Part shown: piece after piece, positions 7,601-9,497 of the stretch
Numbering within the stretch: the first letter of the stretch is position 1
Layout: each line of letters starts with the position of its first letter
Source of the DNA: a virus
UHGV virus genome: UHGV-1654074
Direction: 5' to 3' (one strand)
Length of the DNA: 12,580 nucleotides
Position numbers and translations under genes: made by a program
Notes under the pieces: model-generated
Databases searched by the model: none
What the model was told of the DNA's origin: nothing
What the model saw: the letters and a program-made list of their open reading frames with translations, nothing else

Positions 7601-7712
7601 GATAGGTCCGGCTGCCCTGAAGGTGGTTTATGACCTTGGGAAAAAAGCGGCAGCGGACTTTATGCAACAGCAGGCCCGTGATGGTGGTCGGTTAAGTGGA
7701 GCATATCGGTAA
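4647..7712 (+). CDS. H: Tail length tape measure protein H homologue (1021 aa).
   Basis: GGAGGTG precedes the ATG at 4647 (the track start at 4617 is upstream and less likely). Very long Q/E/R/K/A-rich helical protein with an internal hydrophobic segment (MMLGGVIGGIAAAVYGLG). The C-terminal region (...FAFAKGAGVMGEAGPEAILPLRRGADGKLGV...) is as I recall for lambda gpH. Stop overlaps the M start (TAATG). Confidence 0.9.
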   Translation: MDQIANLVIDLGIDAAEFKNEIPRIKNLLNGAASDAERSSARMQRFMERQTQAARQTTQAASSAATAASVHAQTVEKNAQAHERMAREVEKTRQRMEALSQKMREEQAQAMALAEAQDKAAAAFYRQIDSVKQASAGLQELQRIQQQIRQARNSGGIGQQDYLALISEVTAKTRVLTQAEEEATRQKVAFIRQLKEQATRLNLSSSELLRAKAAQLGVSSAAEVYIRKMEQAGKATHSLGLKSAAARQEIGVLIGELARGNLGALRGSGITLANRAGWIDTLMSPKGMMLGGVIGGIAAAVYGLGKAWYDGQKEGEEFNRQLSLTGHYAGVTAGQLWTLSRAISGNGITQHAAAGALAQVVGSGAFRGNDIGMVARAAAQMERSVGQSVSDTINQFKRLKDDPVNAAKALDNELHFLTATQLEQIRVLGEQGRSSDAARIAMSALAEETGRRTADIDNNLNALGSTLKYLSDLWSRFWDAAMNIGREDSLDEQIAALQEKVSRAKRLPWTASSSQVEYDQQRLNDLQEKKRQKDLQDAKEQAERNYQEQQKRRNAENAALNRMNETEAARHQREIARINAMQYADQAVRDAAIQRENERYEKALASGKKKTRETRNDEATRLLLQYSQQQAQVEGQIAAARQSAGIATERMTEAHKQLLALQQRISDLDGKKLTADEKSVLARKDELIQALTLLDVKQQELQKQTALNELKKKTIQLTSQLAEEERAQRQQHDLDIATVGMGDQQRQRYQVQLSLRQKYQQQLEQLRRDSEQKGTYNTDDYRKAEQALTESLNRQLNENRRYWQQLEVVQGNWKNGVLRAFQDFTVDADNTAETAEQVFSSAFSNMGNGLATFVTTGKLNFKSFTSSVLSDMAKILAQATMMKSIKGIGSVLGFDLSSLSLNANGGIYQSADLSRYSGTVVNRPTFFAFAKGAGVMGEAGPEAILPLRRGADGKLGVVADIGGSGMAMFAPQYNIEINNDGTNGQIGPAALKVVYDLGKKAAADFMQQQARDGGRLSGAYR

Positions 7713-8041
7713 TGGAGACGTTTCACTGGAAAGTGCGCCCGGATATGAATGTGGTATCAGAGCCGAAAGTGGTGACAGTGAAGCTGGGCGATGGTTATGA
7801 ACAGCGTCGTGCGGCGGGACTGAATAACCAGTTGTCGACTTACAGCGTGACGATACGTGTTCGTAAATGTGAACACCCATCTTTAAAAGCCTTTCTGGAA
7901 CGGCACGGTGGCGTCCGCGCATTTCAGTGGACGCCACCTTATGACTGGAAGCCGATCAGGGTGGTTTGTCGTAAATGGTCGGCAAGCGTGGGGGCGTTGT
8001 GGGTAACCATAACGGCAGATTTTGAACAGGTCGTGGCATAG
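7712..8041 (+). CDS. M: Minor tail protein M homologue (109 aa, the same length as lambda gpM).
   Basis: 109-aa ORF coupled to the H stop. M.TF.WKV.P ... GDGY.QR ... TYSV ... WTPPY.W ... AEFEQVV pattern as in lambda gpM. Confidence 0.9.
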   Translation: METFHWKVRPDMNVVSEPKVVTVKLGDGYEQRRAAGLNNQLSTYSVTIRVRKCEHPSLKAFLERHGGVRAFQWTPPYDWKPIRVVCRKWSASVGALWVTITADFEQVVA

Positions 8042-8753: not shown

Positions 8754-9497
8754 ATGACAGAGACAGAATCAGCGATTCTGGCGCACGCCCGGCGATGTGC
8801 GCCAGCGGAGTCGTGCGGCTTCGTGGTGAGAACACCGGAGGGGGAAAGATATTTTCCCTGCGTGAATATCTCCGGTGAGCCGGAGGAGTATTTCCGGATG
8901 TCGCCGGAGGACTGGCTGCAGGCAGAAATGCAGGGTGAGATTGTGGCGCTGGTCCACAGCCACCCCGGTGGTCTGCCCTGGCTGAGTGAGGCCGACAGGC
9001 GGCTGCAGGTGCAGAGTGATTTGCCGTGGTGGCTGGTCTGCCGGGGGGCGATTCACAAGTTCCGCTGTGTGCCGCATCTCACCGGGCGGCGCTTTGAGCA
9101 CGGGGTGACAGACTGTTATACGCTGTTCCGCGATGCCTATCATCTTGCAGGTATCGATTTGCCGGATTTTTACCGACATGATGACTGGTGGAAATCAGGT
9201 CAGAATCTCTATCTGGATAATCTGGAGGCCACAGGGCTGTATCAGGTGGCGTTGTCATCAGCACAACCGGGCGATGTGCTGCTGTGCTGTTTTGGTTCAT
9301 CGGTGCCGAATCATGCCGCCATTTACTGTGGTGACAGCGAGCTGCTGCACCATATTCCTGAACAACTGAGCAAACGAGAGAGGTACACCGACAAATGGCA
9401 GCGACGCACACACTCCCTCTGGCGTCACCGGGCATGGCACGCATCTGCCTTTACGGGGATTTACAACGATTTGGCCGCCGCATCGACCTTCGTGTGA
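8754..9497 (+). CDS. K: Tail assembly protein K homologue, 247 aa from the ATG at 8754: N-terminal JAB/MPN (JAMM) metalloprotease-like domain plus C-terminal NlpC/P60-type Cys/His domain. An internal start at 8898 would give a 199-aa form.
   Basis: The JAMM motif H-x-H-x7-S-x2-D is present as HSHPGGLPWLSEAD. Candidate NlpC/P60 Cys (GVTDCYTLF) and His (NHAAIY, HH) lie downstream. The ATG at 8754 is 5 nt after the L stop; the track start at 8712 lies inside L and is unlikely. The ATG at 8898 has GGAGGA 9 nt upstream. Confidence 0.85.
   Translation: MTETESAILAHARRCAPAESCGFVVRTPEGERYFPCVNISGEPEEYFRMSPEDWLQAEMQGEIVALVHSHPGGLPWLSEADRRLQVQSDLPWWLVCRGAIHKFRCVPHLTGRRFEHGVTDCYTLFRDAYHLAGIDLPDFYRHDDWWKSGQNLYLDNLEATGLYQVALSSAQPGDVLLCCFGSSVPNHAAIYCGDSELLHHIPEQLSKRERYTDKWQRRTHSLWRHRAWHASAFTGIYNDLAAASTFV

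Follow-up and report, generated by a model that had tools for sequence, protein, structure and literature searches.

The closest described counterpart of the gene studied here is gpK of phage lambda, the TAPK of Iyer, Burroughs and Aravind (2006). That work already recognized in K a JAB domain joined to NlpC/P60 and a ubiquitin-like partner in gpI, and put forward the ubiquitin-like N-domain of gpI as the part that K would process (Iyer et al., 2006, PMC1779556). gpK is required for tail assembly and is absent from virions (PMC10721106), and it is unresolved in the cryo-EM maps (PMC12617516); a passage on a domain in the former study is compatible with removal by K, yet is not evidence for it. 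A gpK counterpart has also been reported in the lambda-like tail cluster of the F-type pyocins (PA0639/pyoF8), where it is likewise absent from mature particles; the likeness is drawn here from the description, and the pyocin differs in being a tailocin, not a phage. The first domain of K can be compared with the prokaryotic JAB/MPN+ (JAMM) deubiquitinase-like peptidases PfJAMM1 (5ld9/5lda), DSY2949 (2kks), and AfJAMM (1r5x), with which it shares the complete motif and, according to Foldseek and a profile alignment starting at residue 2, the fold; it differs from them in being fused to a C40 peptidase and encoded beside the ubiquitin-like tail protein I, its substrate being putative. The second domain resembles NlpC/P60 (C40) peptidases such as MepS/Spr of E. 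coli in its Cys121-His187-His199 residues and in structure, whereas K, unlike MepS/Spr, serves phage assembly in the cytoplasm and has no signal peptide context, and a cell-wall substrate is putative in its case.

The window, that is, the whole stretch of 12,580 nucleotides analyzed here from the virus genome UHGV-1654074, carries a lambda-type tail-tip cluster in the order M-L-K-I-J (Table 1). K lies between L and I, and I begins 103 nt inside K in another frame, as does lambda I (14773..15444); these are the features of a lambda-type K. The window comes from a lambdoid relative showing about 95% DNA identity to lambda-type phages in this region, not from lambda itself. Its K is 94% identical at the amino acid level (233/247) to the corrected lambda K presented below, from which the lambda database entry (NP_040598/AAA96551, 199 aa) differs owing to a base omission, the frame of the window being intact over 247 codons. 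K is an ordinary, already known lambda-type gene, which departs in nothing from the known picture of gpK, its enzymatic role being predicted. Of 5426 complete E. coli genomes, 4367 contain K, the median being 2 copies.

Table 1. Features of the window in and around gene K (window coordinates)
Feature	Position	Strand	Basis
Gene M	7712-8041		Pfam-confirmed
Gene L, minor tail protein L, 232 aa	8051..8749	+	Pfam Phage_tail_L, 330 bits
Gene K, full-length, 247 aa / 28.3 kDa	8754..9497	+	Prok-JAB and NLPC_P60 Pfam matches, AlphaFold, Foldseek
Disputed 48 codons of K: helix 1, beta1-beta2 hairpin, Glu19	8754..8897	+	Conservation, dN/dS
SD-like GGAGGA (8882-8887) and in-frame ATG 8898 (Met49)	8882..8900	+	Start of the lambda reference annotation
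JAMM metal-binding motif H68-S-H70-x7-S78-x2-D81	8955..8996	+	H68, H70, and D81 invariant; S69 and S78 at least 94% conserved
NlpC/P60 catalytic residues C121 (9114-9116), H187 (9312-9314), H199 (9348-9350)	9114..9353	+	Alignment and NLPC_P60 match
Gene I, tail assembly protein I, 223 aa	9395..10066	+	Pfam Lambda_tail_I, aa 14-97, 97.6 bits

Two ATG codons can be considered as the start of K. The original prediction described the first, at 8754, as coupled to the L stop and devoid of a Shine-Dalgarno (SD) sequence, and this was borne out: it lies 4 nt downstream of the L stop (TAA 8747-8749), and the 20 nt preceding it show no complementarity to the 3' end of the 16S rRNA (dG of the anti-SD duplex, +0.7 kcal/mol). 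The statement that the open frame begins at this codon holds in so far as it is the first ATG in frame, but the frame is already open from at least TTG 8712. The internal ATG is preceded by a GGAGGA with a dG of -9.5 kcal/mol and a rather long spacer of 10-11 nt; it would yield a product of 199 aa (22.9 kDa), and both the coordinates and the J02459/NC_001416 annotation agree with the original prediction that this is the length of lambda K. The JAMM motif HSHPGGLPWLSEAD, previously placed about 20 residues past the internal start, begins at H68, 19 residues past M49. The N-terminus specific to the long form reads MSPEDWLQAEMQGEIVALVHSHPGG..., and its residues 2-48 include the peptides AILAHAR and CAPAESCGFVVR. 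Other candidate starts were rejected: TTG 8712 (261 aa) lies inside L and the N-termini of the family align with 8754, and GTG 8823, 8826, and 8862, which are used by some gene callers, were discarded on the same conservation grounds.

Homologs of K were collected with an exhaustive HMMER search over 1.84 billion representative proteins, which returned 1720 at E <= 1e-10. In the full-length relatives (36-59% identity, 230-260 aa), query residues from about 1-10 onward align with residues from about 1-15 of the relative. In an alignment of the K of the window with 83 homologs showing 33-58% identity (84 sequences), 82 of the 83 homologs have an N-terminus that protrudes by only 0-7 residues relative to M1, and six residues encoded by codons 1-48 are invariant or nearly so in the family: G22 and N38 (84 sequences each), E19 (83), F47 (80), C21 (78), and P17 (77). 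Mean column conservation amounts to 0.41 in residues 1-48 vs 0.48 in residues 49-100. At the nucleotide level, the polymorphic sites in 8754-8897 are distributed 3/2/11 over codon positions 1, 2, and 3 among 16 unique close sequences. The dN/dS of codons 2-48 (Nei-Gojobori) is 0.097 relative to the E. albertii prophage copy L109 (dS 0.66), which is identical to the value obtained for codons 49-213, and 0.32-0.40 relative to two Citrobacter copies, this ratio being noisy in close comparisons, where just 3-13 substitutions are counted. The synonymous-site pattern of a non-coding stretch, which the original prediction had considered, was therefore not what was found in 8754-8897, where variation is biased toward third positions and dN/dS ranges from 0.1 to 0.4. 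These patterns of variation demonstrate that 8754-8897 is coding and indicate that it is under purifying selection, and, on this sequence evidence, ATG 8754 is the true start of K.

The same 48 codons carry part of a domain. K consists of a JAB/MPN+ domain (about aa 1-105) followed by an NlpC/P60 (C40) domain (about aa 108-226). In the long form, Prok-JAB (PF14464) matches aa 4-98 over profile positions 4-103 of 114 with 52.7 bits (cutoff 25), whereas in the short form only positions 63-103 are matched, and the score of 22.9 bits is under the cutoff. NLPC_P60 (PF00877) matches aa 111-224 over all of its 105 positions with 45.6 bits (cutoff 23), and does so equally in the short form. The catalytic motif E-x(n)-H-S/T-H-x7-S-x2-D is complete (E19, H68-S69-H70, S78, D81) and its residues are 94-100% conserved in the 84 homologs; its glutamate lies in the peptide PAESCG (GAG 8808-8810), inside the disputed codons. 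In the second domain, H199 never varies in the same alignment, and C121 and H187 hardly do. The structure predicted by AlphaFold2 with the 84-sequence alignment has a mean pLDDT of 97.4 and a pTM of 0.92, with residues 1-50 at 97-98 from the first residue on; a model made from the single sequence (pLDDT 33) was unusable, and the alignment-based model was used. The modelled N-domain, which has the MPN fold according to AlphaFold and Foldseek, comprises a helix (3-15), strands 21-27 and 30-36, a helix (51-60), and a strand ending in H68-S-H70. Foldseek matches it with Pyrococcus JAMM1 (5ld9/5lda; for 5ld9, TM 0.66-0.68 on the target, rmsd 2.6-2.7, 107-109 columns) and the C-domain with MepS/Spr. 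Positions 2-101 of the family profile align with the JAB structures 2kks and 2kcq from residue 4 of the latter, and this alignment takes in the N-terminal helix and the P-x-E-x-C-G motif. According to the model, a protein starting at Met49 would be devoid of helix 1, the beta1-beta2 hairpin, and the catalytic Glu, which agrees with the earlier suggestion that the short form would miss the JAMM glutamate and the N-terminal strands. The K of the window shows all the sequence-level features of the family, and its enzymatic activity and substrate are predicted on this basis.

The window is not alone in having the start of K close to the L stop. With its 4-nt gap, it falls under the definition of a coupled start used here, an overlap with the L stop or a gap of at most 10 nt. 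Members of the lambda clade have gaps of 4, 5, or 10 nt; the K of the two Citrobacter copies (74-77% identity) starts 11 nt past the L stop or in a TGATG overlap, and relatives with about 50% identity, found in Rahnella, Phytobacter, Hafnia, Atlantibacter, Erwinia, Enterobacter, Pseudocitrobacter, and Pantoea, show TGATG or ATGA overlaps. Judging from these sequences, the juxtaposition of the two codons is conserved family-wide. ATG 8754 would need no SD because the ribosomes terminating L at TAA 8747-8749 would reinitiate 4 nt downstream; this translational coupling is the mechanism commonly deduced from a conserved arrangement of this kind. K would be translated as one 247-residue protein having an N-terminal JAB/MPN+ (JAMM) metallopeptidase and a C-terminal NlpC/P60 cysteine peptidase. 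We assign a probability of about 0.9 to the joint reading that K is a single 247-aa product made from 8754 via coupling to L, that the site at 8898 is a by-product, and that the 199 aa of lambda K stem from a missing G.

Lambda K is annotated at 14276..14875 (199 aa) in J02459 and NC_001416. About 10 nt before the annotated ATG, GGAGGC-TATTTCC in the lambda reference stands against GGAGGCGTATTTCC in the window, in phage 21, and in all the others; the position of the omission corresponds to about 8888-8889 in the window. Among 140 loci, the 29-nt version occurs only in two copies of the lambda reference, while 47 loci have a version that is identical to lambda except for the additional G. Contaminants in unrelated genome assemblies provided seven lambda-identical contigs, 9.7-48.5 kb long and in four cases about 48.4-48.5 kb, which match positions 13000-15500 of J02459 with 0 mismatches and exactly one gap. 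The extra G is located between reference positions 14266 and 14267 in ten sequences, namely these seven contigs, PV340536 (lambda), DE3, and lambda imm21. In the phage collection, the 502-nt version of the region was found in lambda imm434, lambda h434 imm21, KT232076, LC730321 (48,503 bp), HK629, HK630, and others, and the 501-nt version only in J02459, NC_001416, OR474059, and OR974322. When the G is restored, lambda K becomes a 247-codon ORF starting at ATG 14133; without it, this ATG opens a dead-end ORF of 76 codons. Lambda K is listed as 199 aa because the reference lacks this one G: its omission from the 1982 reference would put the first approximately 44 codons of K out of frame and leave the SD-preceded ATG as the first usable start. 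This cause was overlooked in the original prediction. The GGCG run is a classic gel-compression site, and the lambda sequence notes of a commercial supplier presumably list a single-base insertion at 14266. No statement on a correction of the K start or on the discrepancy at 14266-14267 was found in the searchable literature. A programmed frameshift in lambda K was rejected, the frame being intact in every independently sequenced copy.

Whether the 1982 strain truly had a 1-nt deletion, so that the K of laboratory stocks would be split or truncated and yet functional and its JAB domain dispensable, has to be weighed against an omission from the sequence. Four records lack the G, and the frameshift in stf of lambda PaPa provides a precedent for such a laboratory mutation (PMC10721106). 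However, all the independently sequenced derivatives and contaminant contigs examined carry the G with 0 other differences, as do lambda imm434, KT232076, and LC730321 judging from their 502-nt matches, and OR474059 and OR974322 may themselves be derived from the reference, one being unannotated or engineered and the other perhaps a reference-guided assembly. We consider a real deletion very unlikely, and a base omitted in 1982 seems to be the most economical reading of these sequences. The idea that only the short form exists, 8754-8897 being an untranslated spacer between L and K, has the annotations of J02459, NC_001416, DE3, and lambda imm21 in its favor, as well as the approximately 11,000 member sequences of four 199-aa clusters, which come from automatic gene callers. 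It would leave the third-position bias and the low dN/dS of the long frame unaccounted for, together with the six conserved residues, among them the catalytic Glu, and the need for this region in the Pfam-significant JAB match and in the fold, and the missing reference base accounts for the annotation; from the conservation data, this idea appears to be already refuted, its probability being practically nil.

There remains the suggestion that both forms may be made, the 199-aa product from ATG 8898 retaining NlpC/P60 intact beside a crippled JAB remnant and serving a separate function. Lambda has known examples of nested in-frame products (C/Nu3 and S107/S105). Taken in isolation, the GGAGGA and its ATG form a plausible ribosome binding site (RBS), both are retained in most of the close lambda clade, and annotators mark the site as the RBS of K even in lambda imm21, which carries the G, DE3 being annotated from the same start. 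Natural versions of K having only NlpC/P60 exist (Iyer et al., 2006, PMC1779556), so that some phages can make do with this domain. Against this, the joint conservation of an internal start and its SD that is expected of a nested start was not found among the relatives: at alignment column 49, only 13 of the 84 sequences have Met, vs 53 with Ile and 10 with Leu, Ile being found there even in E. coli copies of the Stx-phage type with 83-88% identity. The two signals are uncoupled, since CCGGAGG is retained in the E. albertii copy, where codon 49 is ATC and not ATG, whereas the Citrobacter copies (L113, L114) keep the ATG and have no SD (dG +0.4). Within the lambda clade, synonymous changes weaken the SD (GAG to GAA in L041 and L046, CCG to CCT in L024 and L030), and the codon directly past it varies between Glu, Ala, Asp, and Gly. 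Combinations of an SD core and an ATG are as frequent in the window as in codon shuffles (14 vs 14.3 +/- 5), GGAGG is not enriched (20 vs 26 +/- 5 expected), three CCGGAGG copies occur within 70 nt in the 5' region of K (8837, 8882, 8906), all of them at Pro-Glu-Gly/Glu/Asp codons, and the spacer is longer than optimal. The short product would also carry about 55 residues of a half-domain that, according to the model, would be unable to fold. Since SD and ATG are uncoupled across relatives, the site looks like a by-product of the peptide E-P-E-E-Y-F-R-M (E-P-E-x-Y-F-R-M across relatives), from which GGAGGA and ATG 8898 would both arise. The claim that both forms may be made finds no comparative support; some weak initiation at ATG 8898 may occur in this phage, but a functional second isoform is improbable. 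A narrower version, in which the SD and the ATG at codon 49 would be a recently acquired start in the lambda clade alone, giving an NlpC/P60-only isoform beside full-length K and two tail-assembly activities from one gene, is slightly less probable still. In this clade, one of the 16 unique close loci has CTG at codon 49 and hence no internal AUG.

At the other end of the gene, the polymorphic sites in the K/I overlap (9395-9497) are distributed 0/6/2 over K codon positions 1, 2, and 3; position 2 of K is position 3 of I there, and I is therefore the constrained frame. Conservation of K residues 227-247 within the family is low (mean 0.12). Annotations also disagree on where gene I begins: ATG 9395 (223 aa) is backed by lambda and the window, while in PGAP (NZ_CP028754) and PV340536 the gene begins at the K stop (573 nt, 190 aa), a choice that would cut about 20 residues from the Lambda_tail_I domain. 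Elsewhere in the cluster, the tape-measure gene H (4617/4647-7712) has about 1020 codons vs 853 in lambda, a difference from which a longer tail would be expected; its ORF opens at TTG 4617, and ATG 4647 has a GGAGG 8 nt upstream.

Lambda DNA is present as low-coverage contigs in unrelated assemblies of Pseudomonas, Shewanella, Neobacillus, Chromatium, Leeuwenhoekiella, Bradyrhizobium, Streptomyces, and Enterococcus. These stray contigs (L088-L099, L107-L111, L115-L121, L132, L136-L140) range from fragments to whole genomes of about 48.4-48.5 kb and look like spike-in or reagent contamination.

The annotation of K is at present divided. The 744-nt gene is annotated in phage 21 (OL657228), in lambda PV340536, and by PGAP in the closest E. 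coli prophage copy (98.4% identical), and a 600-nt gene in DE3 and lambda imm21 despite an intact long ORF. Among the protein clusters listed, those of 247 aa have about 50,000 members, and smaller clusters start at GTG 8823 (224 aa) and GTG 8862 (211 aa). A paper on JAMM structure cites the short lambda entry AAA96551. The one-base discrepancy explains a truncated annotation of lambda K that is 40 years old, and the main value of the present analysis lies in curation: the K model of J02459/NC_001416 is without the catalytic glutamate and a third of the JAB domain, and has spread to DE3, lambda imm21, and the automatically called 199-aa proteins. Cloning, modelling, or mutating lambda K from the reference means working with a non-native protein, and a +G at 14266/14267 will turn up whenever variants are called with NC_001416 as the reference. 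The presence of an intact JAB domain beside the ubiquitin-like gpI keeps the processing hypothesis of Iyer and Aravind testable.
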